This document shows, piece after piece, positions 1-64,000 of a stretch of 64,000 bases of DNA. The translations under genes and the position numbers were made by a program. How positions within the stretch are numbered: the stretch's first letter is position 1; each line of letters begins with the position of its first letter. The DNA lies in IMG/VR virus record IMGVR_UViG_3300023371_000071; one strand, 5' to 3'. The notes beneath the pieces are model-generated. The model did no database searches and was not told the origin of the DNA. It worked only from the letters and a program-made list of their open reading frames with translations. The DNA is from a virus (Duplodnaviria; Heunggongvirae; Uroviricota; Caudoviricetes).

Positions 1-1
1 T

Positions 2-1285
2 CACCACCACGCAGAACCCGACGGACAAGACCCAGCAATAATTGTTAATAACCAGATGTGCGACTATGATAATAAGTGTCTATCTGGTGTTGGTGTAGTC
101 TATAAATTTTGTAAAGTTTTAGATGATCTAATTGGTGTATCATATGCTGACGATTTCCTTGATTTGGTCGCTCTTGGAATGGTTGCTGATATGATGGATT
201 TGCGTTCTTTTGAAACGAAGCGATTGATTGATATTGGATGCACAGAAATTCATAATCCGTTCTTTGTCCATATGGCGAAAAAGAATGATTATTCTATGAA
301 GAGTAAAATTAATCCATTTACAATTTCATTTTATGTAGCTCCATTTATTAATGCAATCACTCGTAGTGGTAATGATGCAGAAAAGTTGCTGATCTTTGAA
401 TCTCTATTAGATCATCGAGCAATGCGATTAATTCCATCTGGTAATCGCAATCGTAAAGGATTAGAAGATTTACTTGTGGTTGAAGCAATCCGCGTTGCTG
501 GTAATGTTAAAAAGCATCAGGATGATGCAAAAGTTAAGGCACTTGATGATTTACGATTCCGCATTAATTCTGGAGAATGCGATTTTGGTATCTTGATTAT
601 CACTCTTGATAATCCTATTGATACCAATCTTACTGGTTTGTTAGCAAACCAAATTATGGCTGAATATGGTAAACCAACTTTGATTTTAAACAAGAGGATA
701 AACAATGAAACAGGAGAAATCACTTGGGAAGGTTCTGGCCGAGGCTTCATTACTCCTCATGTTAATGATTGGCGTGCTTATCTTGAACAATACGCTATGT
801 ATGCAGAAGGTCATGCGATGGCTTTCGGAGTTGGTTTTATCCCTGATCAGCTGACAGACTTTAAGCATTTAATGACCACTAGCCCAATGGATATTACAAA
901 GTCTTATGATGTTGATTTTGTATTCCAAATGACTGATAATTTTGATGCCGACATTCTTGATGTTGCAAAATATGATGAAATGTGGGGTCAAGGTTTAACT
1001 CAGCCGATGGTGGCTATTAAAAATATTTCTTTGAAGAAAGACGACATTCTTCTGCAGGGTAAAGGCACATTAAAACTTAAACTTGGTAATCATCGTACTA
1101 CATGCATTAAGTTTGGTGGAACCGATATTTATAATGAATTACAGTCTTTGTTCCCGTCTGATGATGCTACAATTAAGCTCAATCTAATCGGCACCTGTGC
1201 TTTAAATGATTGGGGTGGAAGCATTTCTCCCCAGCTAAAGCTGGTTGATTATGATGTGTCATATGTAGATACTTGGGGTTTTTAA
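2..1285 (+). CDS. RecJ-like DHH-family ssDNA exonuclease, 5'-truncated at the window edge
   Basis: The frame is open from position 2 and starts with HHH (a DHH motif). 'DLVALGMVADMMDL' matches the RecJ motif DLVALGTVADVVPL. A DHHA1-like region follows. TAA stop. Confidence 0.6.
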   Translation, partial: HHHAEPDGQDPAIIVNNQMCDYDNKCLSGVGVVYKFCKVLDDLIGVSYADDFLDLVALGMVADMMDLRSFETKRLIDIGCTEIHNPFFVHMAKKNDYSMKSKINPFTISFYVAPFINAITRSGNDAEKLLIFESLLDHRAMRLIPSGNRNRKGLEDLLVVEAIRVAGNVKKHQDDAKVKALDDLRFRINSGECDFGILIITLDNPIDTNLTGLLANQIMAEYGKPTLILNKRINNETGEITWEGSGRGFITPHVNDWRAYLEQYAMYAEGHAMAFGVGFIPDQLTDFKHLMTTSPMDITKSYDVDFVFQMTDNFDADILDVAKYDEMWGQGLTQPMVAIKNISLKKDDILLQGKGTLKLKLGNHRTTCIKFGGTDIYNELQSLFPSDDATIKLNLIGTCALNDWGGSISPQLKLVDYDVSYVDTWGF

Positions 1286-1286
1286 T

Positions 1287-1315
1287 TTGACAACTTCAAA
1301 AAGAAATGGTATAAT
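1287..1315 (+). promoter_or_regulatory. Consensus sigma70-type promoter (TTGACA-17nt-TATAAT) upstream of the helicase gene
   Basis: TTGACA at 1287-1292, an exact 17-nt spacer, TATAAT at 1310-1315. The gene start lies about 34 nt downstream. Confidence 0.55.
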
Positions 1316-1348
1316 ATAATTGTAGAAAATAGGAAAGTAGGAACTTAA

Positions 1349-2509
1349 ATGATACTGACTGCTAAGCAAGAAGAAGGTCTTAAGATTGCGGTCAAGCGTT
1401 ATAAGGACCACGAACCTTATACTTGTATTGCTGGTTATGCCGGGACAGGTAAAAGCACACTTATTCGATTTATTATCAGTGCATTGAATATTGATCCTGA
1501 TGATGTGTGTTATGTAGCCTATACCGGCAAAGCCGCGCAGGTTTTGCGTTCAAAAGGATGCCCGAATGCAATGACCGCACATAGATTACTATATAAATCT
1601 GTACAAAAGGATGATGGAACATTTGTTCATTTTCCGAAGCGTCCATTATTTCCTTTTGCTCTAATTGTTGTAGATGAAATTTCCATGCTACCAAAACCAA
1701 TGTGGGAACTTTTATTATCTCATCGAATTCATGTAATCGCTCTTGGTGATCCCGGTCAGCTTCCGCCTGTTATGGCTGAAAGTAATGGTGTGTTGGATAC
1801 CCCGCATATTTTTCTGGATGAAGTTATGCGACAGGCTGCCGAAAGTGAGATTATCCGTTTAACAATGGATATTCGTGCAGGAAAAGGTTTGACTCCTATG
1901 TTGGGCCAAGAGGTAAGAATTGTAGGGCGTGAAGAACTCCTACAACCTGGTTTTCTTGCATGGGGAGATCAGATTATTTGCGGTAAAAATGAAACCCGCA
2001 ATCAAATTAATAGAGTAATGCGACAGATCAAAATGAATACTGAAGGAATTGAACCTTTAGTAGGAGACCGAATTATCTGTCTGCATAATGAATGGGAATG
2101 TATAAATCTAACTGGTGATGCTCTTGTAAATGGTTTGAGTGGCACAATTACTGATTTGAAATATACAAATGATAACCCATTTATGGAGAAAACTCCCATC
2201 ATCGACTTCCAGCCTGATATTGATGACAGTGACACCTTTAGAGGATTAGAAGTCGATTATAAGCTTTTCACTGAACATGTGCCGACTGTGAACAAAGAAA
2301 CCTTCAAGAAAATTCCTAAGTTCTATCGACCCAAGGAGTTTGATTATGGATATTGCATTACTTGCCATAAAGCGCAAGGTAGCGAATATGATAAGGTTAT
2401 TGTTCTTGAGGAATACTTGAGAGGTGAAAGCAAAGATGGTCATTCTCGTTGGCTTTATACTGCTGCTACTCGCGCTGCCAAGAAATTAATTATTGTGAGG
2501 AATTATTAA
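1349..2509 (+). CDS. SF1 DNA helicase, Dda/RecD-like
   Basis: Walker A 'AGYAGTGKST', Walker B 'VVDEISML', and 'CITCHKAQGSEYDKVIV', which is the helicase motif VI found in RecD/Dda/Pif1. At 386 aa it is Dda-sized. Confidence 0.8.
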   Translation: MILTAKQEEGLKIAVKRYKDHEPYTCIAGYAGTGKSTLIRFIISALNIDPDDVCYVAYTGKAAQVLRSKGCPNAMTAHRLLYKSVQKDDGTFVHFPKRPLFPFALIVVDEISMLPKPMWELLLSHRIHVIALGDPGQLPPVMAESNGVLDTPHIFLDEVMRQAAESEIIRLTMDIRAGKGLTPMLGQEVRIVGREELLQPGFLAWGDQIICGKNETRNQINRVMRQIKMNTEGIEPLVGDRIICLHNEWECINLTGDALVNGLSGTITDLKYTNDNPFMEKTPIIDFQPDIDDSDTFRGLEVDYKLFTEHVPTVNKETFKKIPKFYRPKEFDYGYCITCHKAQGSEYDKVIVLEEYLRGESKDGHSRWLYTAATRAAKKLIIVRNY

Positions 2510-3258
2510 TGATTATGATCGCCGGCCCATGCGCCGTGGAAACTGCGACTGACACTTATAAAATCGCAGAGGAATTAAGTAAATATGATAAAAAAATCAT
2601 TCTGCGTGGCGGTTGCTGGAAACCCCGCACTAGACCAGATTCCTTCCAGGGGCTCGGAGAGGTCGGCGTTGATATGCTTGTTGCTGCGTATGAATTATAT
2701 GGACTACAAGGGTGCTGTTTAGAGGTAATGAGTAAAAAACATTTGGATTATGTTATTAATCATTATCCAGAAAAAAACATTATTCTTCAAATTGGCTCTC
2801 GTAATATGCAAAATTTTGAACTACTTAAATTAGTAAGTTCTTATTCTAAGGAATATGGTAATACAGTACTTCTAAAGCGAGGCTTTGGAAATACCGTTGA
2901 TGAAATGTGTGGAGCGAGGGATTATTTACAGCATGACAATGTTATCTTATGTGAGCGTGGTATTAGGACTCTGTCTGATGCTAGTCGTTTCACTTTGGAT
3001 TTGTCCGCCATCCCTGTGTTACAGCAAAAAACTGGGTGTCGAGTTATCGTGGACCCATCCCACGCTGCTGGAGAGAGAAGTCTGGTATCCGGATTGGCAC
3101 GGGCTGGTATCGCCGCAGGAGCAGATGGCTTGGAAATTGAGGTAAAATCAATGTTTGCCAAGTGTCCGCGTAAATGCGATGAAGCACAAGCTCTCCCCAT
3201 AGATGAATTTTATGTTTTAGCACATGTGTGTGAAGATATTGACAAAATCTTAAAATAA
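2509..3258 (+). CDS. 3-deoxy-D-arabino-heptulosonate-7-phosphate (DAHP) synthase, type I-beta-like (KDO8PS/DAHPS fold)
   Basis: 'IAGPCAVE', 'LRGGCWKPRTRPDSFQGLG' (compare Thermotoga DAHPS 'RGGAFKPRTSPYSFQGYG'), 'IGSRNMQNFELLK', 'VILCERGIRT', 'RFTLDLSAIPV', 'VDPSHAAGERSLV', 'AGADGLEIEV'. The ATG at 2509 overlaps the upstream stop (TAATG). GAGG ribosome-binding site. Confidence 0.75.
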   Translation: MIMIAGPCAVETATDTYKIAEELSKYDKKIILRGGCWKPRTRPDSFQGLGEVGVDMLVAAYELYGLQGCCLEVMSKKHLDYVINHYPEKNIILQIGSRNMQNFELLKLVSSYSKEYGNTVLLKRGFGNTVDEMCGARDYLQHDNVILCERGIRTLSDASRFTLDLSAIPVLQQKTGCRVIVDPSHAAGERSLVSGLARAGIAAGADGLEIEVKSMFAKCPRKCDEAQALPIDEFYVLAHVCEDIDKILK

Positions 3259-3278
3259 TAATATAAGAGGTATATAGT

Positions 3279-4283
3279 ATGCAATATGCTGATAGCAAAA
3301 ATTTATTTGACCAACTATCTGAAGATTTTTCCAGAAAGTGTACAACAACTTCTCAGCCTATTAATTATCTAAAATTCTGTAATAACAATGGCCAAATTAA
3401 TACTGATTTGGATATTCAGCGAGGTTACCAATGGGATGAAAAACGTCAGCAAGAGATGTGGAACAGTTTGCTGCTTAATGCTCATATTCCTGAATTCCAT
3501 GCATTAATCCGCAATGATATTTACGACATTATTGATGGTAAACAGCGACTATTAACGATCTTTAAAATCATCAATGATGAAATTCCTCTGAAATACAGCT
3601 ATGCAGGTCCCGAGCTGCACTGGCTTTTTACTCAAGGAAAAAATAAAGATGCTCTTGTCCGACAGATTAATTTTTCTTGTTTACCAAAGGAGTTGCAATA
3701 TCGTATTTATAATACTACGATTTTGATTACTACTTACTCTAATCTTGACAGAGATGAACAAATTATGCTCTTTAAAAAAATTAATAATGGTAAAGCATTA
3801 AGTGATTTTGCAAAAGGATTGTGCGAAAATTTCTTTATCCGCAAGGATGGTACTGCTGAAATGCTAAAGCATTCTGTGTTTAAAAATTCAGAATGGAAAG
3901 ATGAAGAACAAGAGGCAATTGAGAAAGCGTTAGTTCGCTTTATGATTCTTAAGCATAAAAATATGGTAGTTTCTCTAGAACCCACAAAGATGATTAGTTA
4001 CTATCCTGAATTTGATCGTGACGTATTAAATTTGAGCGTTAAGCAAGTAAATGCTGTCTTAGATCGTATTCCCACTTTGCATAAAATTCTTAAATGCCGC
4101 GCTTGGGAATCTTATTTTCCAGCATTTTTAATAGTAGTTGATCGTCATCCTGAGCTTACAGCAGAACAAATTGACACCATGCTTGTAAAAATTCGTTCTT
4201 GTACTGCTGGGCGCGGAGCTGATTTAAGAGCCAGTATTGTTGCTGAACGCATCGACACTGTAGAATCTTTAATTGACAATTAA
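3279..4283 (+). CDS. DUF262 (ParB/GmrSD N-terminal nuclease-like) domain protein
   Basis: 'DLDIQRGYQW' and 'IIDGKQRLLTI' (the DGQQR-type DUF262 motif). No recognizable DUF1524/HNH half. Confidence 0.6.
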   Translation: MQYADSKNLFDQLSEDFSRKCTTTSQPINYLKFCNNNGQINTDLDIQRGYQWDEKRQQEMWNSLLLNAHIPEFHALIRNDIYDIIDGKQRLLTIFKIINDEIPLKYSYAGPELHWLFTQGKNKDALVRQINFSCLPKELQYRIYNTTILITTYSNLDRDEQIMLFKKINNGKALSDFAKGLCENFFIRKDGTAEMLKHSVFKNSEWKDEEQEAIEKALVRFMILKHKNMVVSLEPTKMISYYPEFDRDVLNLSVKQVNAVLDRIPTLHKILKCRAWESYFPAFLIVVDRHPELTAEQIDTMLVKIRSCTAGRGADLRASIVAERIDTVESLIDN

Positions 4284-4301
4284 ACAAAATTATGATATAA
4301 T
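4273..4301 (+). promoter_or_regulatory. Consensus sigma70-type promoter with extended -10 (TTGACA-17-TGaTATAAT) upstream of dnaE
   Basis: TTGACA at 4273-4278, a 17-nt spacer, TG at 4293-94, TATAAT at 4296-4301. The -10 context 'AAATTATGATATAAT' is almost identical to the promoter at 11771. Confidence 0.55.
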
Positions 4302-4328
4302 ATATACAGAAATGATAGAAAGAGGTTC

Positions 4329-7300
4329 TTGGATATGTTTTTTAACTGTCATAATCATACGATGTATTCAAACCTCAGACTTCTGGACTGTATCATCAAA
4401 CCGAAAGACCTAATCGACCGTGCGATCGAATTAGGCCTTTCTGGTATTGCGATTACCGACCATGAAGCACTGAGCGCTCATATGGAAGTAAACATGTATG
4501 CGAAGAAAATTCGTGAAAAGCATCCTAATTTTACTATTGCGCTCGGTAATGAGATTTATTTGACTGACACAAGAGAGAAAGGTCAGCCATACTATCACTT
4601 TATTTTGATTGCTAAAGATGCTATTGGTCACAAAGGTTTGCGTGAGCTTAGCTCTAAGGCATGGTATAATTCTTATTTTGATCGAGGTATGGAGCGTGTT
4701 CCTCTGCTCAAGAGCGAGTTAGAAGAAATTATGACTCGATACAAAGGTCATATTATGGGTACTACTGCCTGTATGGGCGGTGAGCTGTCTAAACTGATTG
4801 TGGAATATCAGATTCTCAAAGAAATGAATCAGCCCAATCAGGAAATATTTTATAAGATGCAGGATTTCATTCAGTTCTGCATGAGAGTATTTGGTCCAGA
4901 TGATTTCTATATTGAATGTGCGCCATCTACAATGAAAGATCAGATCATGGTCAATCGGTGTCTCGGTGAAATGGCACAACTTTATGGATTGAATTTGGTG
5001 CCGGCTACCGACTCTCATTATCTCAGTCCTGAAACAAGATTTGCGCATAAGGCATATTTGAACTCTAAGGGCGGAGATCGAGAAGTTGATAGCTTCTATG
5101 AATTTGCGCGTTTGATGGATGAAAAAGAAGTGAGAGAACTTCTACTTCATTCTTTTGAAGAAACTACTGTTGATATGATGATGCATATGACAGAAGATAT
5201 GCGTCAGAAAATTGAGTGGTATTCTTTGGAAAAACCGCAGCAGATTCCTGTTGTAGAAGTTCCAACTAGAAACGCTGGCTTTCTTGGGTGGGGAATTTGG
5301 CAAGAATATCCCACGCTTTATGATATTAACCTTAATGGCAATGAACAAGAGCAATATTGGCTTGATTGTTGCATGGAAGCTTTGGTAAATAAAGGACTTG
5401 GTGAAGATGTCTACCTCGAAAGACTCGAAATTGAAGCAGACGTTATTCGATATATTGGCAATCGTCTTGGGACTTGTTTGTTTGCCTACTTTAATACTTT
5501 CAAGCACTATATTGATTTGTTCTGGGAGTGTGGTAGCATCGTCGGTCCTGGCCGTGGATCTGCCACTGGTTTTCTGTCTAATTATCTCCTTGGTATTACT
5601 CAGCTAAATCCTATCAAGTGGAATCTTCCTTGGTGGCGTTTCTTGAATAAAGAACGTGCGGAATTGCCTGATATTGATATCGACCTTGCTCCTTCCAAGC
5701 GAGCTGAAATCTTTCAGCGTATTCGTGAAGAACGTGGAGAAATGGGACTGATTCAGGTTATTACATTCGGTACTGAAGGTTCTAAGTCTGCAATCTTGAC
5801 CGCCTGTCGTGGTTATAGAATGTTAGATGAAGATGGAATTGAAATGTTTCCTGATGGTATTGATGTTGACGTCGCTCAGTATATTGCATCTTTGATTCCA
5901 TCCCATCGCGGTTTCCTTTGGAGCATCAAGGATGTTGTATATGGCAATAAGGATGAAGATCGTCAGCCTATTGCCGCATTCAAGAGAGAAGTTGACAAGT
6001 ATCCTGGACTTTTAGATATTATCTTTGCGATTGAAGGAATCGTGAAGCAGCGTGGTTGTCATGCATCTGGTGTCATTATGTATGAAGAGGATAAGATTTA
6101 TGACACCGCGGCGATTATGAGAACTCCTTCTGGTGATCTTGTAACCTGTTATGACCTTCACATGGCAGAGGCTGCTGGTGACACTAAATACGACTTCCTT
6201 GTAACCGAAGTTTCTGACAAAATCATTAAGGCTCTTGAACTGATGCAAGAGGATGAAGTAATTGATCCTGATATGAGTTTGCGTCAGATGTATGAAGAGT
6301 TCTTGCATCCTGAGCATATTGATACAACCGATCCCGAAATTTGGGAAGCACTTGCAGAGGGTAGCGTATTGGATGTATTCCAGTTCAGCGGTGGCGTTGG
6401 TTTGGCGATTGCAAAGAAGCTTCGTCCAACTGATCCTCTGGAAATGACCGCAGCGAATGCAATGATGAGACTTATGTCTGAAAAGGGTAAAGAGTCTCAG
6501 CAGGATAGATATGCTCGTATCAAGAGTCAAGGAATCAGAGTCTTCGATATGGAAATGAAAGAGCATAATCTGCCGAACAGCATGATTAAAGCAATGCATA
6601 AACATTGCGACAAGTATTATGGCTGTTGCGCAATTCAGGAACAGATGATGGAGATTCTGATGGATCCTGAGATTGCAAGTTTCAGTTTGAAAGAGGCAAA
6701 TGATGCTCGTAAGATTGTTGCTAAGAAGCAAATGTCTCGTATTCCCGAGCTTAAAGGTAAGGTTTATGATGTAATGGATCAGCGACTCGCTGACTATGTG
6801 TGGGAAGTTGCGGTAGCTCCTCAGTTGGGTTATGCATTCTCCATGAATCACTCTCTGCCTTATTCTTTCGTCGGTATTCAGACAATTATCTTAGCACGAA
6901 AGTTTGATCCGATTTATTGGAACACTGCATGTTTGATTGTAAACAGTGGTGCAACAGATGAAGATCTTGAAGGTACAACGAACTATGGAAAAATCGCAAA
7001 AGCCATTGGTGACATTCGAAGTGCAGGAATTGCAGTCTCCACGGCAGACATTAATAAATCTAAATATGGATTTTCTCCAGACGTTGGAGAGGGCACAATC
7101 ACCTACGGACTTAAAGGTCTACTCAATGTTGGAGACGATGTCATCGCAGACATTATTGACAAACGCCCTTTCACTAGCTTCGGAGATTTCCTTGGCAGAG
7201 TCAAGTGCGGAAAACAGGCAGTAATTTCTCTTATCAAGGGTGGCGCATTTGATAGCTTTGGTGAGCGTAAGCGCATTATGGCTGAATATTTGTGGTTGAA

Positions 7301-8189
7301 CTGCGATAAGAAAAAGAGAATCACACTTCAGAATATGAATGGTTTGATTCAAAGAGGTCTGCTGCCTGATCATCTTAGTCTGCAGAGCAAGGTTTTTGAG
7401 TTTAATCGTTACTTGAAAAATGTATGTAAGTTGACTGACGGTTATTATGTTCTGGATGATAGAGCGTATGGATTCATCGACAGATTCTTCCCTGATGTTC
7501 CTCTGGAAGTATTTGGTCCGACTTATGCAATGAATCAGAAGTTGTGGGAAAAGGTATATCAACAGCAAATGGATTTTGTGCGTGAGTGGATGAAAGCTAA
7601 TCAGGACGAAGTTCTATATCAGCTGAATAAGAACATTTTTGAGGAAGAGTGGAAGAAATATGCTTCTGGTAATTATTCTTCTTGGGAAATGGAAGCATTA
7701 TGTTTCTATTATCATGAGCATGAGTTGAAGAACGTCAATCGCGCACGATATGGAATTAGCAATTTCTTCGATCTGCCAGAAGAGCCGATTATCGAAAAGA
7801 CATTTAAGCGTGGCGGTATTGAAATTCCGATTTATCGTTTGAATAGAATCTGCGGCACATGCATCGCTAAGAATAAAACAAAAGGTACAGTATCTCTGTT
7901 GACTCCTGAGGGTGTTGTCGAAGTTAAGTTTAGAAATGAATATTTCAGTTTGTTCGACAAGCAGATTTCTGTGCGTGGCGCTGATGGCGTAAAGCATGTT
8001 GTGGAAAAGTCTTGGTTCAATCGTGGTTCTATGATTATGGTAACTGGTATTCGCCGTGGTGATGATTTCATTCCGAAGAAATATGCAAGCACAGTTGGTC
8101 ATCAGCTGTATAAGATTGAAAACATCACTTCTAATGGTAGCCTGACTCTTAAAACGGAGCGCGCAAGCGGGGAGGCCGAAGAAGAATGA
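4329..8189 (+). CDS. dnaE: DNA polymerase III alpha subunit (DnaE-type, PHP domain plus polymerase core)
   Basis: N-terminal PHP motifs 'CHNHTMYS' and 'ITDHEAL'; the hallmark 'GPGRGSATGFLSNYLLGITQLNPI'; 1286 aa; TGA stop. Confidence 0.9.
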   Translation: MDMFFNCHNHTMYSNLRLLDCIIKPKDLIDRAIELGLSGIAITDHEALSAHMEVNMYAKKIREKHPNFTIALGNEIYLTDTREKGQPYYHFILIAKDAIGHKGLRELSSKAWYNSYFDRGMERVPLLKSELEEIMTRYKGHIMGTTACMGGELSKLIVEYQILKEMNQPNQEIFYKMQDFIQFCMRVFGPDDFYIECAPSTMKDQIMVNRCLGEMAQLYGLNLVPATDSHYLSPETRFAHKAYLNSKGGDREVDSFYEFARLMDEKEVRELLLHSFEETTVDMMMHMTEDMRQKIEWYSLEKPQQIPVVEVPTRNAGFLGWGIWQEYPTLYDINLNGNEQEQYWLDCCMEALVNKGLGEDVYLERLEIEADVIRYIGNRLGTCLFAYFNTFKHYIDLFWECGSIVGPGRGSATGFLSNYLLGITQLNPIKWNLPWWRFLNKERAELPDIDIDLAPSKRAEIFQRIREERGEMGLIQVITFGTEGSKSAILTACRGYRMLDEDGIEMFPDGIDVDVAQYIASLIPSHRGFLWSIKDVVYGNKDEDRQPIAAFKREVDKYPGLLDIIFAIEGIVKQRGCHASGVIMYEEDKIYDTAAIMRTPSGDLVTCYDLHMAEAAGDTKYDFLVTEVSDKIIKALELMQEDEVIDPDMSLRQMYEEFLHPEHIDTTDPEIWEALAEGSVLDVFQFSGGVGLAIAKKLRPTDPLEMTAANAMMRLMSEKGKESQQDRYARIKSQGIRVFDMEMKEHNLPNSMIKAMHKHCDKYYGCCAIQEQMMEILMDPEIASFSLKEANDARKIVAKKQMSRIPELKGKVYDVMDQRLADYVWEVAVAPQLGYAFSMNHSLPYSFVGIQTIILARKFDPIYWNTACLIVNSGATDEDLEGTTNYGKIAKAIGDIRSAGIAVSTADINKSKYGFSPDVGEGTITYGLKGLLNVGDDVIADIIDKRPFTSFGDFLGRVKCGKQAVISLIKGGAFDSFGERKRIMAEYLWLNCDKKKRITLQNMNGLIQRGLLPDHLSLQSKVFEFNRYLKNVCKLTDGYYVLDDRAYGFIDRFFPDVPLEVFGPTYAMNQKLWEKVYQQQMDFVREWMKANQDEVLYQLNKNIFEEEWKKYASGNYSSWEMEALCFYYHEHELKNVNRARYGISNFFDLPEEPIIEKTFKRGGIEIPIYRLNRICGTCIAKNKTKGTVSLLTPEGVVEVKFRNEYFSLFDKQISVRGADGVKHVVEKSWFNRGSMIMVTGIRRGDDFIPKKYASTVGHQLYKIENITSNGSLTLKTERASGEAEEE

Positions 8190-8410
8190 TGAACGAGAAA
8201 GTGATGAAGTGGCGATCGTCGCCACTTCATCGTAAATGTATTTTTTGTAAACACTTAAAATTTATAACCATACCGGCTCATCTGCCATGTAATGATTACT
8301 ATAAATGTGTTGCTAAAGACAAATATATTGATTATTGTTTGCCAGATATGACAAGAGCTCCAAGACCGTTTTGTAAATTATTTGAATTAAATACGGAGAT
8401 AAAAGAATGA
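8186..8410 (+). CDS. Small Cys-rich hypothetical protein, possibly a zinc-binding fold
   Basis: ATGA overlap with the dnaE stop suggests translational coupling. 7 Cys and 3 His in 74 aa. No recognizable homologue. Confidence 0.35.
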   Translation: MMNEKVMKWRSSPLHRKCIFCKHLKFITIPAHLPCNDYYKCVAKDKYIDYCLPDMTRAPRPFCKLFELNTEIKE

Positions 8411-9003
8411 AATATATTGTAGCACTTATTGGCAAGGCAGGAGCGGGAAAAGATACAATTGCTCAGGGCTTAGCTACACTCAATCCTGACTGGAATATGA
8501 TTGTCTCTTGTACAACCCGCCCTCGTCGAGAAAATGAAGTTGAAGGTATCAACTATTATTATCTTACAAATGAGGAGTTTGCGCAGAAAGTACTGAATGG
8601 CGATATGCTTGAAGCTACTTATTTCAACGATTGGCATTATGGTACTATGGCTTCTTCTCTTCACGAAGGTGTAAACATTGGTGTTTTCAATCCTGAAGGC
8701 TACGATTGTCTTACAGAGATGGGCGGCGGAGAAATCAAAGTTATTGGCTTCTATATCAATAGCGATGATAAAACTCGTCTACTGCGCCAGCTTAATCGCG
8801 AAGAAAACCCTGATGTTCATGAGATCGTCCGCCGCTTTAGCGCAGATGAAGAAGATTTTTATGATATTGATAACGATCCAGACTATCCTGTATATGTAAT
8901 TCAAAATGGAAGAGATACTTCTCTACCATATGTTGTACATGAAGTCAATAAAATCATTCACGCGGTTCTAGATATTGTGCCTCTTGTGGGCAGTCATGAA
9001 TAA
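8407..9003 (+). CDS. gmk: Guanylate kinase-like (d)NMP kinase
   Basis: P-loop 'GKAGAGKDT'. The guanylate-kinase signature 'TTRPRRENEVEGINYYYLTNEEF' (compare TTRPPRPGEVDGVDYHFV). 'YFNDWHYGT'. ATGA overlap with the upstream gene. Confidence 0.65.
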   Translation: MKYIVALIGKAGAGKDTIAQGLATLNPDWNMIVSCTTRPRRENEVEGINYYYLTNEEFAQKVLNGDMLEATYFNDWHYGTMASSLHEGVNIGVFNPEGYDCLTEMGGGEIKVIGFYINSDDKTRLLRQLNREENPDVHEIVRRFSADEEDFYDIDNDPDYPVYVIQNGRDTSLPYVVHEVNKIIHAVLDIVPLVGSHE

Positions 9004-9066
9004 TTTATTGGGCGAAATTTTGAAATATCATGTCTACCCTATTTTATAACTCAGGAGGTCAATGAA

Positions 9067-22133: not shown

Positions 22134-22154
22134 ATCTCCGTTTTCTCCTCTCGC

Positions 22155-40453: not shown

Positions 40454-40479
40454 GGGCAAAGTGCAGTGTCACTTTGCCC
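40454..40479 (-). terminator. Rho-independent terminator
   Basis: GGGCAAAGTG-cagtgt-CACTTTGCCC hairpin, followed on the minus strand by TTTTTATTTTTT. Confidence 0.65.
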
Positions 40480-40499
40480 TGTGTAGTAAAATTTATAAA

Positions 40500-45233: not shown

Positions 45234-45244
45234 AATATCCCTCC

Positions 45245-50900: not shown

Positions 50901-50952
50901 AGGGAATGGTGCCCGCTATATTTGGTGGATATAAGCGGTTAATTGCGGCCAT
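47944..50952 (-). CDS. Tail/baseplate protein (about 1000 aa), with 5 in-frame TAGs
   Basis: ORFs 50329-50952 and 48358-50055 share a frame via TAGs at 50329 and 50101. The frame continues through TAGs at 48358, 48079 and 47947 to a TAA at 47944-46. GAGGAGGAG ribosome-binding site. Confidence 0.55.
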
Positions 50953-50954
50953 TC

Positions 50955-51341: not shown

Positions 51342-51366
51342 AATCCTTTTTCTCCTTTATATATGA

Positions 51367-54300: not shown

Positions 54301-57300
54301 CGCACTGTTCTCATAATCAAGAGATAGACTCTAACCATCCCACTCATTAACAAGAGAAGAAGGATAAAGGTTCTGCGCAAATGCGATACCCTGCGCGACT
54401 GTTGTGGTACCATCCATAAAATATATATAAGTAAAATACTCATCTGTTAATAAATCTTCTGTCCATTGTTGTGCATAAGCCGAAGGATCTGCTACATGAG
54501 TATTTAATTGTTGCGCGGAAAAACCTAACGCATAAGAAGTTTGATTTGCTTTACTTACAGAAGTTCCATTTGGTAAAGTAAATACTGGATATTCAGCCTC
54601 TTTTTCAATTAAGCGTAATACTTTTGTTTGATTGATCTACCATGTTGGATAAATCAATTCATTCATATAATCATATGTTTCGCCGGTTTCTTCAGAAGTA
54701 TCAGATCCAGTAATAATTTTTTGTACTTCAAATACATTTGATGCATAAATTGGTGCTTGACCGTCAGATCTAAATTCTACACGATCTGGACACACAATAT
54801 CATGCGTTTGCATATATTGAGCACTGTTACTTACTAAAATACCTTTTCGGACTGTAATATCATATTCTGCCGCACCAGATACCGTAACCTCAACAACAAA
54901 AGGATAAGGTTGTGTAATGCGGCCACGGATAACATTGCCAATAAAATCTTTATAATTTAGATGGTCTCTATCATCTTTTGGTTTATATGCAGTACCATAA
55001 TATTTCCAAGTGAATTCGCACTTTGCTCTTTCATCCAATGGTAATAATTGACCTTTACGATCATATACTAAACAGTAGATTTCAAATTCACTTGCGGTAT
55101 CAACATAATAATTGCCAGCAGGTTCACTAATGGTAATAACAGGAGTATATTCACAACCAAAAGCTCCTGCTCGTCCAAAAATTAGTTCTTTCTTAATAGA
55201 AAAAGAACCCATACCATCAATATCAATTGTAGCACTAATTTCATTGTCATTATATCGCACATTATGAATAGCATCAATATAAAAATAGCGAGTTGCTTTT
55301 TTATCTAATTCAAATAAATGATCTGAACGATGATTCCAATATGCAATATCTCGTGCGTTATCATCAAGCATTCCCCATGCTCTAATCATAGTAAAACTTT
55401 CTGGGAATTGCCAAGTAATATTAAAATTCGGTTTATTACCATCTCGATCAGTGTACTCGCTTAAACGAACATAAGCGGCATCTTTGTCTGCATATACGTA
55501 ATCTGAAGCAAGATTTCTACGATCCTCTTCAACTTTGATCCAAGGTTCAATATAGTATTGCACATCTGAGAATAAAATATTATCATCATTAGCTAATACA
55601 TTATTATTTTCATTATATACAAAGAAATTACCAACAGTGTCATCGGGAACAAGAGTTTCAGATTCTCTTGGCGCTAATCTATGAGTATCAGTTAAAAGTT
55701 CCATTTTACCTGTTGTAGTTGTAAAGAAATAACCTTTACCAGTAGGTAATTTTTCTGAACAGGAACCAACCAAGTTTCCACGAGAATCATATACGTCATA
55801 GCCAGATGGTTTCAATAACGCACAACGTAATACAACTTTATCATTGCGCGCCAAATTGGCAATATCGCTCTCAATCGTTGTGTTATAATTCTAAAAAATA
55901 AATACATTACTTGTAGTATATGTATTATTAAAATGAATTACAACCTTGTAGCGCTCTTTTGCTTTATTTATATCGGGAGTAACAACAAAATTAATTGGAG
56001 TATTTTCATCATATTCTACATCAGCATCTGTTCCAATAGGGCGCCAATAATTACCACCGAAACGATGAGATGGAATTTCTGAATTATACTCGGGATGCTC
56101 TGGCGCCCATTCAGGATCATATCTATACCAATATGTTTTTGCTTCTAATTCTTCTAATCTTGAATATGTATCAATTAGTTCAAGAGTGTTATCTACTTTA
56201 TGAACCCATGCGGCATAAAGAGTACGATCAGGTTTACGCACTGCCTCATTCTCAGGGTCTGCGCCATATGTAACTACATCATATGTATATAATGTAATTG
56301 TTTCCTCTTGCATTTCCTCAACAGAAAGTCCAAGCAAACAATGTAAATTATTAAAAATAATATTTTTTAACTCTGCACTTCGACCAGTGGCTTCTCCAAA
56401 CTAAACATAGATTTCGTTAATACGAATCTTTTTTTCTTCTTCTGAAAGACTTGTATCATCTTCTACGGCTTTAATCTAAGCCATAAAATCTTCTTTAATA
56501 GTTTCTATGTCTTGAGATCCCCAAGGGATTGGATTACCATATTCATCAATAAATTTATGATCTTGCCAAAACCATACGTCAATACTATCAATAGAATTGG
56601 TAAATTTAGAGATGTCCACAACGATTTGTTGTGTTGAGGCTAAAGTATAAGCATATGGATTACCGTACATATTATTGTTAGTAAAGTAATATTCTTGTGT
56701 TAAAGTTTCAATAGCACCAGAAGTTTTATCTTCAGTGCCTTGACCTCTTACACAAATACGTAATCCATATTCACCAGATTGAGGTCTAAAAGTATGTAGA
56801 AGTGTAGTAACATCAACTTCTAAACCCAATTTTGTGGCACAAATAGGACGTTTTTCAATGTTTTCCCAATGCCATACATGATCTTCGGATATTGGGAATG
56901 TTTCATTCGCAACATCCATAATAAGCGTTTGTTCTTCTCCATGATAAGGACAATTAGCCCAATAACCAACTTCCTACATTGGCGTATTATATGATAAATT
57001 ATATAATCCCACAAAATCATCAAAAGGAAGTTTGAGATTATATATGCTCTATTCATCTTCAGTATTAATTTTTAAACCAATAATAAATTTTTGAAGATTA
57101 AAATCACCATTTGGGATTTGTACATAAACTTGCTGACCTGCACTATATACTTCTCCCTATTTAGCATAAGCATCAAAAACTGCGTCTTGGCTTTTTACTT
57201 TATAGACACCAGTGCGAGCACCTTTATCATCAAGATAAACCTCAATGATTTTACACTCTTTGGTAATATCAAAATTTTGCTTTGATACGACTCCAGTTAC

Positions 57301-57360
57301 AATTGTATAAATCGCATCAAATAAATCGTTTTGCAAATTACCATTTTTCTATTCTGCCAT
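51367..57360 (-). CDS. Giant tail-tip/baseplate-associated protein (about 1997 aa), read through 18 in-frame TAG codons
   Basis: Nine ORF-track fragments share one frame: 56476-56919, 55891-56337, 54637-55854, 54061-54288, 53683-53889, 52426-53319, 52090-52347, 51406-51759 and the start segment. TAGs at 57349, 57157, 57049, 56974, 56476, 56401, 55891, 54637, 54331, 54061, 53923, 53683, 53479, 52426, 52090, 51937, 51808 and 51406. ATG at 57358-60 preceded by AAGGAG. TAA at 51367. The C-terminus is Tyr/Ser/His-rich ('YTASSHSYTPASHSYSPSSYTAS'). Confidence 0.6.
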
Positions 57361-57480: not shown

Positions 57481-60400
57481 TTAGCGTTTTGAACCAATGT
57501 ACTGAGCCGCGCGATTAATAAGATTATCAAAAGCATCTTGGATTTCATTACTATCTTGTACGTTCGGGAATTCTGCGGTAATATGAACTTGTTGTTGCAA
57601 TTCAGTTTCCTTGGTGGTTTGGGTAGTTTCTGCATGTAAATTATACATATTAGCTCTTGAAGCTGCGGTTGCCAAATTAATATATTCATCCATCATAGTT
57701 AATGTGGCTTGATCAAGTTTATTTACTACTTTAACTGTATCAAGCAATTTTTGTGTATCATTTTGATTTAATACTAATTCCGGTCTACTCTTAGTGCCAT
57801 CAACCCAAGCGGGGCCAGTATAATCAGCGAGGCCACCAGTGGCATATTTCTTGCCAGTTTTATCTTTAATTAGATCACCAAGCTTATTGCCAACAATAGC
57901 TCCTGCTACGCTAGTGACACCAGATCCAATGATCGCACCAACTGTGCCACCAACTTTAGAACCTACGCCTCCACCAACAACTCCACCAACAACTGCGCCT
58001 AGAACGGCACCAATATTTAATCCAGAAGATTTATCTTGTGTACCGGTTCCACCAGTGCCGCCAGTTTTACCACCTGTATCTCCAGTTTTATCATTGTTTT
58101 TAGTGGTGGTGGTATCTTTTTTGGTCGTAGTTGTAGTAGTTTTAGTGGTAGTTGTTGTAGTACTGCCAACACTCGCGCCGGCCAATTTTGCCTAGGCCTA
58201 AATAACTTTCTAAATTTCTAAATACATTGATTCATAAGTACCAATAACACTATTTAATTTAGAAATATAATTATCCCAAGCTGTTGTAGTAGTATGAATT
58301 TGACTTACCTCTTGACGCAGTGAATCTGTCATTTTTACAGTTTCATTTTTTGCATCTTCTGTTACTTTATCATAAGTATTTACAGATTCGACCATACTAC
58401 CATAACTAGTATTTGTTAATATAGTTACTTCTGCAATTTTAGTTGCATAATCTGACATGGCCTGTTTAATACGATCATAAGCGGTTTCCATTTCATCTCG
58501 ATAATTATCAGTATCATTAATCATTTCACCAATAATTTCAGCAACAGTACCTTTTGTTCTATCTGTAATTTCTTCAACTGCAATACCATAATGATCAGCA
58601 ATTAATTCATTGGTTGTCATTGTATTTTCACTAACAATATTATATTGCTCTTGTAAATAACGAGAGCGTTCATAATAATGATCTAAAATCTCATTGATTC
58701 TTTGTTGTTTTTGTTCTTCTGTTAAAGTTTCATCCATAGCAATTTCTTTAATAGCTTCAAGCGTGTCTTGGCGTAATTGTAAAGTTTGATTATAAATATC
58801 TTGTTCGTATTCCCAATTGGTATCAGCCATTTGCTGAAGTACATCTTCATATTCTTGCTGGGCTTGATTAATAGCATCTTCATCAGCGGTATATTGATAT
58901 ACCATGTTGCCTTCGCTATCACGAGTTAAGCGTACAGTACTCTTAGCGTTTTGAGCCTCTTCAAGAGCAATCTACTTAAGAAGAAGTTCATATTTAAGAT
59001 TCATCATTTCAATTTCATATTCGCTTAATTCTTTTAATTCACTTTGAGCATTAATTTCATCTTGTAATGCTTTTAATTGCTTTTTATGTACACTAGAAGT
59101 TGTGTCGTTGATTGACTGTTGGATATTACGATTTAACTTACTAATTTCATATAGTTCACGCTGAGAAGAAACATATTGCTCCATTTCTTCCATGTAGAAA
59201 CCATATTCCTCAGTGAGCCAAGCAAGATCATTACCCACACCAACCATTGATTCTTCAAGATCTTTCATAATATCTTCGATTGTAGTATCGTACATATCTT
59301 TTAAGGCTTGAAGAGTTTCTTCAGTCTTAGATAGAATATTTGCTTGTACTTCATTCATTGTCTCTTGCAATGCCTCATATTGAATTCGTTCTGTTTCAGT
59401 TAATCCTTCCGCAGAGTTCATGCGCGCAAGATAATATTGCTCTTCTTCTTTAAGTACATTAAGATAGGACATTTGAGATTCAAGAGAAGCCATATTATAA
59501 TCATATTGCTTTTCATAGAAGAATAACAAATCTTCAAATGTTTGTCCTTTACCCATAAGCTGAAGAATAGACATATAAGAGCCCATAGCTTCAGAAGCAG
59601 CATCAATTTTTGCAGTATGCTTGTCAAGTTCTTCACTAGCAAGTTCAAGAGTCTTACCATAAAGTTCTTCAATTGCTTTTTTAGCTTCTTGAATTGCCTC
59701 AAGATTATCAAGAATTTGAGATTGAATATCCTGTAGACCTGCAACGTAATCAGCTTGATTAAGATCTCCCGCCGCGAATGCAGCTTCAAGTTCTTGACGA
59801 GCTGTGGCAAGATAACTTAAATTCTATTCTGCGATTTGTCCTTGACGAATATAATTATCCATAAGAAGATCTTGTTTTTCAAGAACTTCATCATATTTAT
59901 CATTAATATAATCAAGATAATCTTTTTCAGCTTCATTAATTTCAACTTTGTATTCGACTTTATATTGAATCTTTTCAAGAGTCTTTTCAGAAATTTGATT
60001 CTGCAATTCAAGAATTTCATTTTGTTTGTCACCAATAAGGTTTAAAGTTTCTTGATATTGATCAATCCATTCCAAGGCTTCTTCAAACCATTCGTCCATT
60101 TGCTCTTTTTCTTCTTCCATATTTTCTTGAGCAGAAGCATCAGCAGCGTTGTATTTATCAATAAATGCATTGTATTTAGCTAAAATAGAATCCATTAAAG
60201 CATCATAATTAGAAATATTCCCTTCGCCATCAAAAGTAGCACCAAGAGAAGCAACTCTCTATTTATCAACTGCTAACCACTCTTGAGCCTATCTGACATA
60301 TTCTTCCTATAAGCCAATTTCTTGTTCAATTAAAGAAATTTCTGCTTCTAAATTTTTTAAATAAGATTCTCCATAAACACGCTTTTTAACTTTATCTACT

Positions 60401-63400
60401 TTTTCTAATGCATCCGCCATACGCTCTAATGCATTATCTACTTGGAAATAGCGCTGTTTATGATCTTCTGGCTTCTTTTTATCAAGCTTCTTTGGCTTTC
60501 CGCCACCTCCGCCACCTCCACCTCCGCCGCCACCACCGGTGATACCTCCACCATAGGTGCCTTTGTTAGTGATAGTTTTAATAGCAAAACCTTTAACCAT
60601 ACCATCAACAGGATTGGCATGAACACTTAAAGGAATATAAAAGTCTTGACCATTTTCACCATGGGCGATATAACTACCTGCTTTTGCAGACCACTCTGTT
60701 TGTTCCACTGGAAATTCTTTAGTTTCAACCTGCATATCCATTCCCAATGCCGCAGCCAAAGCTTGCATAATACTTGCTGCTTCATTCGCATTAGAGGCTA
60801 AACCAGAGACAAAACCAGCCAATGAAGTTAAGTTATTCGCAACCACTTGACCCATTTCGCCTTCTCCTAACAATTCACTCCAATTAAGAGCTTTACCTTC
60901 TGGTAAACCATTAACTGCTGTTGATAAGGCTTCAAGCTCATCCGTCATAGATGAAATATCAGCATTACCTGTTAATTGATCTAAAATATGCTTAGAAGCT
61001 TTTTCTTGCAATCTATCGTAAGCTCCATCGACACCATCGGCAGCATCCTACAAATCTTTTAATACGTCATCTTGTAACATAAAGTCTTCTGTTAATGCTT
61101 CAATTCCCTTATCATCCAAATCGAGAACATCACCATACATTTCTTTCATGTCATCAAGAGCTTTTTTATGTTCAACAGTGCCCTTCTATGCCTCTTTTAA
61201 TGTTTTAGAATATGTTTTTAAATTGGACTAAACAGATTTTAAACCCTTTTGAACTCTTGCATATGAAGCTGCCAATTTGATATTATCTTCTTCTGTTTCT
61301 CCATTAATTTCGCCTAATTCTTTTAGATATTCTGTATATTCTTTTAATTCTTCAACACTACCAAAACCAGCTTTAGTTGCCAAATCATCAAGGGAAGCTT
61401 CAAAATTATCCTCTCCAGTACCAGTTGTAGCATCATCTTTAGCTTCTTGTGTCTCTTCTTTTACCCCTCCAATAATTTGATCAAATGCTGAAAGTACATC
61501 TAACCATTTCTATGGATCCCATCCAAGAGCAGTTAAGTCTGCCATCGCCGATGCTTTATCTTGATCAGTAGTTGCAGAAGATAATCTTAATAACGCCTTT
61601 TGCTCTGCTTCAGAAAATTCTATACCATAAGGAGAAAATTTTTCTGTGTTACCTGCAATAAGGCCCGCAATCGCAGCTTCTTGATCGGTATATTTATCAT
61701 CTGTAAAATCACGAGTTTCTCCTTCTTTATTTGTCGTAGCAACTTCAATTGATTTTAAAATTGTATCAAAACCTGCCATAGCAACAGATTCCAAGTTCGC
61801 TGCCCAAGTTTCAGGATTAACGCTATCACTTAATTCATATTCTCCCCAACGATTGGCTTCAAATTCACCTCTAGCTCTAATCTCAGCCCTTTTATAAGCT
61901 TCTGCATCAGAAATCTCTTCTCCGTTTGCTTTAGCTTTAGTTTTTTCCTATTCTGCATATGCAGCAATAACTTCTGCATATTCTTCTGCTGTTAATGCTT
62001 CACCTTCTCGGACTTTATCAGCAATATCTGTACGAGTTTTATAAATATTTGCTGCACCTGCCAAAGACATAAGTGCTTCCGCTGCGGCTTGAGCCGCAGT
62101 TGCAACTGCATTAATCGCAGTTTGCAGAGGTCCCTCTAAAGTAAATCCTGCAGCCTTTAATCGATCTTCAAAAGCTTGTACAGAAGCAGGATCTCCCCAA
62201 TCAACACCAGAAAGAGCATTGGAAAATTCATCTAATCTTTCTACCGGAACTGCTTTTAACATTGCTTTCATTCGATCAATACCAATTTGTCCAGCAGAAG
62301 CTTCGGCATTGGCCAAAATATTTGCCGCAGTCTCTTGATCTTCGGCAGTATCAAAAATGTAGTTATCACTAATCATTTCTTCATAAGCAGATTTAACTCT
62401 CTGAGAAAACTTACCATTAGCAATATCAAAAGTCTTAGCTCCATTATTTACCGCGGTAATAATGGCTGCATAAAATCCATCTACATCTTTAGCAATTGCT
62501 GCACCCTATTGCGTTAAACTAAGATTACCTTCTTCATCTTCGGTTAAATATCCTGCTTGAATACCCCAATTTTTCATTAAAGTGGTATCAGTTGGTAAAG
62601 CATATTTTCCGTCTTTTAAAGAAAGTCCCAGTCCCATCGCCAAAGTGTTTTTGTTTTCTGCCCATGCATTACGACCAACATCAAAATATCCTTCTGCTAA
62701 ATTTGCCTAGGATAAAATATAAGCCGTTGCAGGATCTATACCTAATACTTTAGCAATTTGCTCCGGGTCTTGCTTAAAAGCTGCATCAATATAAATACCC
62801 TCTTGAGACCAATTTCTATTTGTATACCCTTCAACATCTTTGTATAATGCCGTTTCTACAGCAGCTAAAGCCTCAGAACCACCAGTTCCATCACTATCAA
62901 ATAATGCAGAAACCAATTTCCAATTATCTGCATTCTATAGCCAATCTGTAGTTACTTCTGTCCCAAAAATTAAAGTTAAAATATCAGCTAAAGCTTTAAA
63001 TTTTTCCAAATTTGCTTCAGTAATAGTGGAATCTGCCATATCTTGATTTAATGCAGTAAAATCTGACAACATACCAATTAAAGAATTAAATCCTTTGGCT
63101 CGATTTGATTTAATTACTGCATCTTCATAAGCTTGCTATGTTGTAATTGCTGCATTAGAATTATATAATTTTAATTCTTCTAAGTCATAACCATTCGCAC
63201 TAGCGATATTAGATAAAATTGAATCTCTTGCCCAAGCTGGGATGGTAGAAAAATCTGCTTTACCATCTTTCGTAAAACCTGCATTAATTAAATCTGTAAA
63301 TGAAGTAACTGTTGCGTACCAACTATTTAAATCTTCTGATGTAACCTATAAGGTATCTCGACTAGCCCATAAAGTTCCAATTCGACTATTAACATCCTAT

Positions 63401-64000
63401 TTTTCTGTATCAGTAGATGATTCTAACCACTTATCCAAAGCAGTTTTGCCTGCTGTATCTTTGGTAATATCATCTAACCCTAAAAGCAGAGATAATAATT
63501 TGCGATCTTCTGACGTTAAATTATCAAAATCAATTAAAGCATCTTCTGTATTTGCGAATTTATTTAAAATTTCATATAATGTATTTGAAAATAAAATTGA
63601 TTTAGACAATGCATTGTCTTGTGAATTTGCGATATATTGCCATTCTTCACCAATTTTTGCAAATTGATCTTGAGTTAAAATACCATACTATTCTAATAAA
63701 TCTAACTCTTCTTGTGAGATCAATCCACCCTCTTGAATTGTTGCTAAAATTTCAGACAATGCAGGAATAGCATTTTTAAAATTTAATAAATTATCGGTTG
63801 AACGAGATGATTGTGTCTAATGATAATTGTTTAATCCATCAACTTGTGATAAATCTAAAGTTCCACCTTTTGTAAAAAGGCTTAAAATTTTATTTATATC
63901 CCCATTAGCCCAATCTTTAATTAATTGCTATTCGTAACCACTAAGTTCTGATAACATTTTTTGCTATCTTCTAGTTAACTAATTGCCAAATTCGCCCCAT
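57481..64000 (-). CDS. Tape-measure protein, 5'-partial (over 2170 aa in the window), many in-frame TAGs
   Basis: All-helical coiled-coil ORF fragments at 57481-58185, 58210-58905, 58972-59586, 59824-60195, 60307-61011, 61510-61794, 61948-62376, 62707-62916 and onward share one frame. They are joined by TAGs at 58192, 58198, 58210, 58972, 59824, 60307, 61510, 61948, 62707 and others. C-terminal glycine-zipper 'GAVLGAVVGGVVGGGVGSKVGGTVGAIIGSGV'. Internal poly-Gly 'GGGGGGGGGGGGG' (about 60499-60540). TAA stop. Confidence 0.65.

Follow-up and report, generated by a model that had tools for sequence, protein, structure and literature searches.

The earlier reports of phages with alternative genetic codes concern the crAss-like and Lak phages. 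Here we analyze the in-frame TAG codons in a 64,000-nucleotide stretch of IMG/VR virus record IMGVR_UViG_3300023371_000071 (Caudoviricetes; hereinafter the window, meaning this whole stretch), in which the genes of the late, minus-strand region differ sharply in TAG content, and compare this locus with the described systems and with its relatives. Borges et al. describe gut phages with TAG reassigned to glutamine (Gln; code 15), in which the replication module is in the standard code and in-frame TAG codons, aligned with Gln, are found in the structural and lysis genes; the recoded codon is viewed as a post-transcriptional switch between early and late expression, and the accepted explanation for the early genes is that they are translated under the standard code of the host before the suppressor acts (10.1101/2021.08.26.457843). 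The same source reports, from a test of TAG versus CAG and CAA, that recoded stops are subject to enrichment or depletion by selection in particular gene families, an effect attributed to regulation, such that lysis genes and the tail tube gene of crAss-like phages prefer the recoded stop and integrases avoid it, and it cites T4-like phages in which the codon use of late genes is fitted to the tRNA sets of the phage (10.1101/2021.08.26.457843). The described phage closest to the window is Phass-1 (OQ749652; proposed Phassvirus group, PMC10607447; 'Caudoviricetes code 15 clade' at NCBI), the genome of which carries 36 tRNA genes; the TAG-carrying orthologues differ among its close relatives, and a TAG-free capsid gene is implied (PMC10607447).

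The window fits readily into this picture. When TAG is read as a sense codon, the open reading frames (ORFs) of at least 100 amino acids (aa) increase in total from 70.3 kb (table 11) to 91.0 kb, with same-frame fragments fusing into ORFs of 2158, 1997, 1444, 1002, 899 and 656 aa (gene starts were set at the first start codon downstream of a stop). In the public gene calls of relatives, the fused ORFs are single full-length genes with CAA or CAG at the TAG sites of the window; Gln makes up 22% of the residues of the other aligned sequences at TAG columns against a background of 3%, and between strains TAG exchanges with CAG or CAA. These three lines of evidence, merged ORFs, alignment with Gln and codon alternation, lead to the conclusion that TAG encodes Gln in this phage (code 15). 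There is no TAG in 4,394 early codons, and there are 73 in-frame TAGs in 13 late or post-dut genes; from the alignments, TAG would be read as Gln late in infection. Judging by its sequence, the window is thus part of a TAG-recoded, siphovirus-like phage with an SPbeta-like replication module, distant kin of Phass-1. A Firmicutes-type host is hinted at by the SPbeta-like replication genes, by an endolysin with SpoIID, SH3 and PG_binding domains and by a homologue in a Faecalibacterium phage. A tRNA gene, and hence a suppressor tRNA(CUA), was found neither in the 64-kb window nor in any of 12 related loci; such tRNAs or other code-change machinery are not obligatory, being reported in just 35-40% of recoded phages (10.1101/2021.08.26.457843).

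Phass-1 resembles the window in the alpha subunit of PolIII (38% identical) and NrdD (46%), in its tail module proteins, which are homologous to those of the window, in the presence of a pair of radical SAM genes, and in its capsid protein, which is 51% identical to that of a relative of the window. The distribution of TAG is similar to that in the window family as well: the tape-measure and hub genes of Phass-1 are TAG-rich and AT-rich (110 TAGs in 3150 codons and 28 in 2156, respectively) whereas the capsid gene (15 CAG, 0 CAA) and the receptor-binding fibre genes contain none. The differences are that Phass-1 is 136 kb long with a GC content of 0.445, compared with ~174 kb (as judged from a 98% identical strain) and ~0.36 for the lineage of the window, that it has three tRNA-Sup-CTA among its annotated tRNAs whereas the window has no tRNA, and that the two show no detectable similarity at the DNA level, megablast searches of INPHARED with two 12-13 kb pieces of the window having given no matches. 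With the phages of Borges et al., the window shares the TAG-to-Gln reassignment, the standard-code early module and the recoded structural and lysis genes, but its lysis genes are not the most recoded ones, the holin having no TAG at all, and the accessible part of that report describes no graded avoidance of TAG tied to codon bias among late structural genes.

Five late genes on the minus strand, encoding proteins of 2437 aa (33105-40418), 548 aa (40500-42146), 451 aa (42166-43521), 405 aa (43536-44753) and 589 aa (30547-32316), contain no TAG in 4,430 codons, in agreement with the original prediction, which put their total at roughly 4,400. We refer to such TAG-free late genes as the block, to the neighbouring TAG-bearing late genes as the flank, and to the fraction of Gln codons that are TAG as the TAG share. 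The TAG-bearing structural genes carry 0.68 TAGs per 100 codons (60 in 8,837; 0.2-1.0 per 100 among the neighbouring tail genes), so that ~30 TAGs would be expected in the TAG-free late genes, fewer than the ~40 originally anticipated from a density of about 1 per 100. Normalized to Gln codons, the difference between block and flank is highly significant (Fisher P = 1.3e-10). The 2437-aa protein is probably a tail fibre or adhesin, as suggested by its C-terminal leucine-rich repeat of the BspA type, and its gene, with 22 CAG and 56 CAA codons, is by itself unlikely to lack TAG by chance (P ~1e-7). The 548-, 451- and 405-aa proteins are fibre-like; tblastn searches with the 548- and 589-aa proteins against annotated phages provided no useful annotation. 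Off-frame TAG is common, with 69 occurrences in the 2437-aa gene compared to 65 in the tape-measure fragment, and because it is not depleted, the depletion is specific to the reading frame. On the same ground, avoidance of TAG or CTAG at the DNA level was rejected.

Chance or faulty gene calling might be invoked for the 589-aa gene, the zero of which is marginal when taken alone (P ~0.04-0.07), and for the small genes, which are not significant individually. For the block as a whole, this explanation, to which we assign hardly any probability, is already refuted by the Fisher test, by the replication of the pattern in 24 of 24 relatives and by the full-length orthologues that validate the gene models. 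The heterogeneity of TAG usage is, therefore, real and non-random. The bimodality that had been proposed does not strictly hold, however: the pattern is graded, several other late genes (those for the holin and the 117-, 104-, 226- and 128-aa proteins, and two radical SAM genes) are also TAG-free, and two plus-strand genes directly after dut, those at 13455-13943 and 14009-14530, carry TAG.

Comparison with relatives indicates that the paucity of TAG in the block is a persistent property. Full-length homologues of the 2437-aa protein, at 99, 65, 63, 56, 48, 48, 38, 37 and 34% identity, are encoded on contigs that retain the gene order 1002-899-129-405-451-548-2437-73-173-589-197 (genes denoted by protein length), and in these relatives the block orthologues contain 0.09-0.29 TAG per 100 codons compared to 0.44-1.7 in the flank. 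The TAG share is lower in the block than in the flank in all 24 recoded genomes (the close relatives plus 28 IMG/VR loci, minus duplicates and unrecoded genomes), with pooled values of 0.092 and 0.324 (Wilcoxon P = 1.2e-7; the relatives are phylogenetically non-independent, so that P values of such paired tests overstate significance). The depletion is not absolute, TAG being present in block orthologues of most of the 24 recoded genomes. The orthologues of the 2437-aa gene carry 2-24 TAGs, and each block gene has TAG-carrying orthologues in some relatives, including strains that are 98-99% identical to the window; in the nearest relatives, the block contains 1-4 TAGs. One of these 98-99% identical strains (L010) has four TAGs in the block, at positions where the window has CAA, AAG, CAG and CAG and the outgroup L004 has CAG, GAA, CAG and CAA, so that these TAGs look like recent gains; in the flank, 13 TAGs are common to this strain and the window. 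Another 98% identical strain has a single TAG in the 451-aa gene.

These comparisons bear directly on the suggestion, made in the original prediction, that the block is a mosaic import from a standard-code phage in which TAG has not yet accumulated. Fibre genes are often swapped between phages, and several observations fit an import: the family includes standard-code phages with related tail and head modules (L043, L030, L036/L037; 12 of the 40 capsid loci), the block exceeds the flank in GC content at third codon positions (GC3; 0.25 vs 0.18), the Gln codon usage of the 2437-aa gene is that of low-bias genes in standard-code relatives (CAG share 31%), and the 405-aa protein is 35% identical to a homologue in the standard-code Faecalibacterium phage FP_Brigit. 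The weight of the evidence is nevertheless on the other side, and we have to conclude that an import is very unlikely. All close relatives share one gene order, and block and flank identities rank the relatives alike and are of similar size (0.98 vs 0.97, 0.69 vs 0.74, 0.53 vs 0.60 and 0.39 vs 0.39 amino-acid identity to the window), with ~12% codon divergence from L010 in both; in none of the pairs compared was there discordance in presence or identity between the two. Neither does the compositional discontinuity fade, the difference in codon usage being retained, in a graded fashion per gene, in 24 highly diverged lineages. The depletion persists down to ~30% identity, where saturation of synonymous sites is inferred; already at 37-65% amino-acid identity these sites are presumably saturated, so that a merely inherited lack of TAG would have decayed. 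A search of standard-code genomes for block homologues found none that surpasses the recoded relatives in similarity: in annotated standard-code phages, the top identities are 25-35%, and the standard-code tail-module relatives L043, L030 and L036/L037 are no closer to the block either. Finally, the ratio of C to T at the first position of leucine (Leu) codons is the same in block and flank. Thus, as far as the sequence comparisons go, the block has been inherited vertically.

The Leu codons also provide a measure of what mutation alone would do. In block and flank, respectively, the T-starting fraction is 0.97 and 0.89 for TTG/(TTG+CTG) and 0.89 and 0.92 for TTA/(TTA+CTA); TAG/(TAG+CAG), in contrast, is 0.64 in the flank of the window and 0.5-1.0 in that of the relatives but 0 in the block of the window and 0-0.22 overall. 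Given the equality of the Leu ratios in the two sets, the flank appears to be near the mutational expectation and the block far below it. A limited mutational supply of TAG in the block was considered and rejected, the block being richer in CAG than the flank (CAG accounts for 34% of CAA+CAG in the block and 13% in the flank of the window). These findings also bear on a hypothesis that reverses the polarity of the problem, namely, that enrichment is the selected state, with TAG serving as a safety lock in the tape-measure, hub, baseplate, lysis and nuclease genes, where it would keep harmful proteins from being made prematurely or at the instigation of the host, and the fibre block representing the baseline. 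A lock of this kind has been proposed for lysis genes and some tail genes (Borges et al.; 10.1101/2021.08.26.457843), and the densest TAG genes of the window include those for a RuvC-like resolvase, a 125-aa protein encoded next to the holin and the endolysin; the extreme TAG content of the Phass-1 tape-measure gene can be read in the same way. However, the flank values are at or below the T share of Leu first positions (0.9-1.0), so that positive selection is not needed to account for the TAGs of the flank, and it is the block that departs from the expectation; furthermore, the holin gene has no TAG, and TAG positions turn over fast, those in flank genes included. We therefore regard the safety lock as unlikely, if worth keeping in mind.

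The difference between the gene sets extends beyond the Gln codons. In a principal component analysis of codon usage from which TAG was excluded, a single axis (35% of the variance) runs from the early genes through the block and the radical SAM genes to the TAG-bearing late genes; thus, the TAG-free genes do not share the codon-usage signature of the TAG-rich ones, a comparison that the original prediction had singled out as potentially refuting. The 548-aa gene shows the strongest bias to G-ending codons among the late genes. For the genes of the closest IMG/VR relative, IMGVR_3300045988_149268, there is a negative correlation between TAG share and the share of G-ending lysine (Lys) and glutamate (Glu) codons (rho = -0.70, P = 4e-4).

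The same relative extends upstream of the tape-measure gene, where a 384-aa capsid homologue (phrog_4088; 51% identical to the Phass-1 protein that matches Pfam Phage_capsid_4) is encoded with 0 TAG, 15 CAG and 2 CAA codons. A 326-aa gene in the tail-tube position, which by its place in the gene order probably encodes the tail tube (major tail) protein, and a scaffold-like gene just upstream of the capsid gene (complete, at 234 aa, in locus L047 of the same contig) are TAG-free as well, and between these three genes lie connector-like genes with 3-9 TAGs each, separated from them by gaps of a few bases. Pfam and PDB sequence searches did not directly identify the capsid or tail-tube candidates of locus L046. 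Altogether, we compared 40 capsid loci, 28 recoded and 12 standard-code. In the 28 recoded relatives, the TAG share of the capsid, scaffold-like and probable tail-tube genes is 0.020 (18/905) against 0.335 (1,704/5,094) in the other late genes, with the lower value in the abundant-protein genes in 28 of 28 genomes, and AAG constitutes ~0.75 of the Lys codons in the former and 0.26 in the latter. The same three genes prefer CAG (80% vs 31%) and AAG (60% vs 30%) in the 12 standard-code relatives. Because the codon bias is present there too, the gradient predates recoding, and TAG was laid over it. The bias is, then, conserved and strongest in the genes for abundant proteins, abundance being assumed from function. 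On a separate note, the family includes standard-code phages in which thousands of tail or head codons contain at most a single TAG (L043, L030, L036/L037, L049-L052, L065, L066 and L081-L086), and the presence of standard-code and recoded members side by side implies that the code switched within the family.

The scenario that seems to accommodate these findings best, and that we consider probable although by no means assured, is a mutation-selection balance in which TAG is purged from the late genes according to translational demand and the block is the low extreme of a graded depletion. TAG would arise chiefly from CAG, via C-to-T change in an AT-biased genome, and its persistence would be set by its cost in each gene. 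In early genes, translated under the standard code of the host, TAG would be a stop and lethal, hence never tolerated; in late genes, it would be a poor Gln codon, presumably because a suppressor tRNA has to compete with the release factor. Purging would then track demand, leaving near-zero TAG in the capsid, scaffold-like and probable tail-tube genes and rare TAG in the fibre block of the window, and in the low-copy tape-measure, hub and baseplate genes TAG would be nearly neutral and drift toward the mutational equilibrium. Under this scenario, the fibre block is an intermediate, TAG-poor tier rather than a categorical class of genes, neither separately timed nor imported, and translational demand or protein copy number would be the likely selective agent. 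The parallel with classical translational selection is close in that codons are chosen gene by gene within one genome or operon, with G-ending codons in the genes for abundant virion proteins; the difference is that the disfavoured codon is a reassigned stop, so that failed decoding truncates the protein rather than slows its synthesis, and that the link to expression is inferred.

Several observations sit uneasily with this scenario. The endolysin gene is an exception in the principal component analysis, with early-like codon usage and yet three TAGs, and when the genes of the window are taken by themselves, TAG share is but weakly correlated with G-ending Lys and Glu codons (rho = -0.35, P = 0.10). 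The zero in the block of the window is below the rate predicted from its sub-clade (P ~0.0007-0.01), and the neutrality of Leu codons as a control is imperfect. In the 2437-aa gene, codon bias is modest (CAG share 0.28, G-ending share of Lys and Glu codons 0.27) but TAG is absent; the avoidance of TAG without a preference for CAG over CAA suggests that TAG itself is penalized in this gene, and we might speculate that harm from truncated fibres is one cause. Moreover, the evidence on capsid and tail-tube genes comes from relatives within the family rather than from the own lineage of the window, with which the 40 capsid loci show no overlap at the DNA level and overlap at the protein level only in L047 (34%). 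The abundance of the virion proteins is predicted from their functions, and the functions of the block proteins are themselves predictions.

A more adventurous possibility is that the recoded TAGs are built-in translational attenuators that set the stoichiometry of the virion within polycistronic late operons, the TAG load being tuned and adaptive; this we put forward only tentatively. According to such a scheme, the genes for the tape measure, hub and connectors, of which three to a dozen copies are needed, might gain tens of TAGs along with rare codons, whereas those for the capsid and tail tube proteins, needed by the hundreds, and for the fibres, needed in intermediate numbers, might be kept TAG-free. 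In a variant of this idea, truncated fibre, capsid or tube fragments may poison assembly, hence the purging of TAG.

The remaining alternative is an extension of the temporal switch into the late genes, with the TAG-free genes as a middle class, the translation of which would precede the build-up of the suppressor, and the TAG-bearing genes following later. The intermediate position of the block between the early and the TAG-rich late genes in codon usage is compatible with such gating. So is a conserved spacer of ~90 nucleotides (nt) ahead of the 405-aa gene, together with the predicted terminator after the 548-aa gene (40480-40453, minus strand), also conserved, which suggest that the 405-451-548 genes may form a transcription unit of their own. 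The terminator hairpin at 40453-40480, between the 548-aa and 2437-aa genes, is kept in five lineages, with four pairs preserved via changes on both sides. However, the block orthologues that carry TAG in relatives, including the 98-99% identical strains, must be translated while the suppressor is active. Between this terminator and the one at 25379-25350, TAG-free genes (2437, 589 and 197 aa) are interspersed with TAG-bearing ones (173 and 1444 aa), so that timing of transcription alone cannot separate the two sets; predicted unit boundaries do not delimit a separate temporal class. In the relatives, the TAG-free capsid and tail-tube genes sit among TAG-rich genes with gaps of a few bases, and a search for a common, distinct late-promoter motif (GATAGAA / TTGATA) yielded nothing convincing. 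Translational gating remains the accepted explanation for the early genes, but in its strict form, as a property of a subset of late genes, it does not fit the late block, for which we deem it rather improbable.

For the early genes themselves the evidence is clear-cut. The early/replication operon of 13 plus-strand genes (56-13462) encodes, by Pfam matches, a RecJ_OB protein, an SF1 helicase, a DAHP-synthase-like protein, a GmrSD_N protein, PolIII alpha, guanylate kinase, NrdD, NrdG and dUTPase, along with small ORFs, and the earlier observation that some 4,400 codons from RecJ to dut are free of TAG, both in frame and as terminators, was confirmed (the terminators are TAA in nine genes and TGA in four). 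There are no TAG-terminated open frames of at least 60 aa on the plus strand of this region. In two relatives (L012, L013), the matching early genes and ~10 kb further upstream are also devoid of TAG, and near-identical contigs carry SPbeta-type YorF, YorH and DnaB genes upstream of the operon. The last early gene, dut, is overlapped at its end by the gene for a RuvC-like Holliday junction resolvase (13455-13943, plus strand; phrog_159, phrog_827), which with four TAGs in 162 codons has the second highest TAG density in the window; the Phass-1 homologue has none. It is followed by a 173-aa gene with one TAG (14009-14530), the last plus-strand gene ahead of a predicted bidirectional intrinsic terminator (14540-14570) at which the plus- and minus-strand gene sets converge. 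The four TAGs of the ruvC gene, its overlap with dut on the same strand and the lack of a predicted terminator before 14540 fit post-transcriptional gating: the gene is likely transcribed alongside the early genes and translatable only after the code change.

Other features of the early operon are of interest in their own right. The DAHP-synthase-like gene, which scores below the NCBIfam cut-offs for DAHP/KDO8P synthases, and the gene for the GmrSD_N (DUF262) protein (2509-4283, plus strand) are unusual cargo between the helicase and the polymerase. At least 22 public contigs (JGI, ENA and Logan samples), of which many span 50-200 kb, encode the exact 386-aa helicase of the window, and, therefore, this phage lineage is widespread in sequenced metagenomes.

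The late region, all on the minus strand, runs from 64000 down to 14961. Nearest to the convergence point is a 125-aa gene (14961-15338) that, with five TAGs, has the highest density in the window and adjoins the holin gene. The lysis cassette (15558-18299) consists of the genes for the holin (15558-15962), the 117-aa protein (15975-16328) and the endolysin (16329-18299), and has strong predicted intrinsic terminators downstream (15552-15529) and upstream (18348-18322). The next unit (18353-25345) includes two genes for Tyr/His/Ser/Asn-rich repeat proteins (538 aa with one TAG and 497 aa with three), the two radical SAM/SPASM genes and the 226-aa and 104-aa genes, the last four without TAG; directly after the terminator at 25379-25350 there is a perfect consensus promoter of the sigma70 type (TTGACA-17-TATAAT; 25345-25317). 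The repeat proteins, of ~500 aa, contain ~18% Tyr and 9% His along with S/N/T/G, with a four-residue periodicity and ~110 aromatic-x-[SNTGK] triplets each, and the best matches of the radical SAM/SPASM pair, all far below curated cut-offs, are the peptide maturases PapB, the cyclophane-forming YhhB/AmcB and HxsB (His-Xaa-Ser), so that the unit reads like giant RiPP-like substrates with their putative maturases within a phage late region. A 197-aa standard-code ORF (22130-22723, minus strand), rich in Ile, Met and Leu, overlaps a Tyr-rich repeat gene in another frame and is probably a by-product of repetitive AT-rich sequence rather than a gene.

Further along are the gene for the 1444-aa fibre-like protein with four TAGs (25568-29902) and the TAG-free 197-aa gene (29934-30527), the orthologues of which, like those of the 589-aa gene, have 0-2 TAGs in relatives. 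The 173-aa gene between TAG-free genes (32322-32843) has one TAG that is present also in L010, with CAA at this site in L004, and a TAG-free 73-aa ORF (32865-33086) corresponds to a gene of 70-77 aa at the same place in relatives. A conserved Shine-Dalgarno region lies 3' of the hairpin at 40453-40480. Beyond the 405-aa gene, the tail and baseplate genes (44844-57360) encode proteins of 129 aa (one TAG), 899 aa (six), 1002 aa (four), 128 aa (none) and 1997 aa (18); the 1002-aa gene contains, ~70 nt from its start, a hairpin that resembles a terminator (50860-50881, minus strand; 6-GC stem, T tail). Another strong predicted terminator (57473-57450) follows the tape-measure gene (57481-64000), of which the C-terminal part, at least 2158 codons with 22 TAGs, is present before the window edge. 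Its orthologues of 3,766-3,818 aa (3818 aa in the 98% identical strain), with 54-66 TAGs visible (L014 1-9881; L046 8615-19915), are exceptionally long, and the tail must accordingly be very long. No homologue of the N-terminal 1137 aa of the tape-measure protein was found at 1e-20, and scanning of metagenomes with a tape-measure peptide of 96 aa returned no matches.

Returning to the TAG codons, the split between early and late genes has already been published, and in this respect the window is a typical code-15 phage. Our literature search found no direct treatment of a graded, abundance-like avoidance of TAG among late genes; the pattern within the late genes, which standard-code relatives already display in the form of codon bias, extends the known picture modestly. 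What it implies is that a recoded stop behaves as an ordinary disfavoured synonymous codon, with a per-gene density that is graded, conserved family-wide and inverse to the bias that preceded recoding. Accordingly, TAG-free genes of recoded phages should not be called foreign or early without a comparison of relatives. The graded pattern also yields a testable prediction on suppression efficiency and virion stoichiometry, and in uncultured phages, translational demand might be roughly gauged from the TAG load of individual genes.

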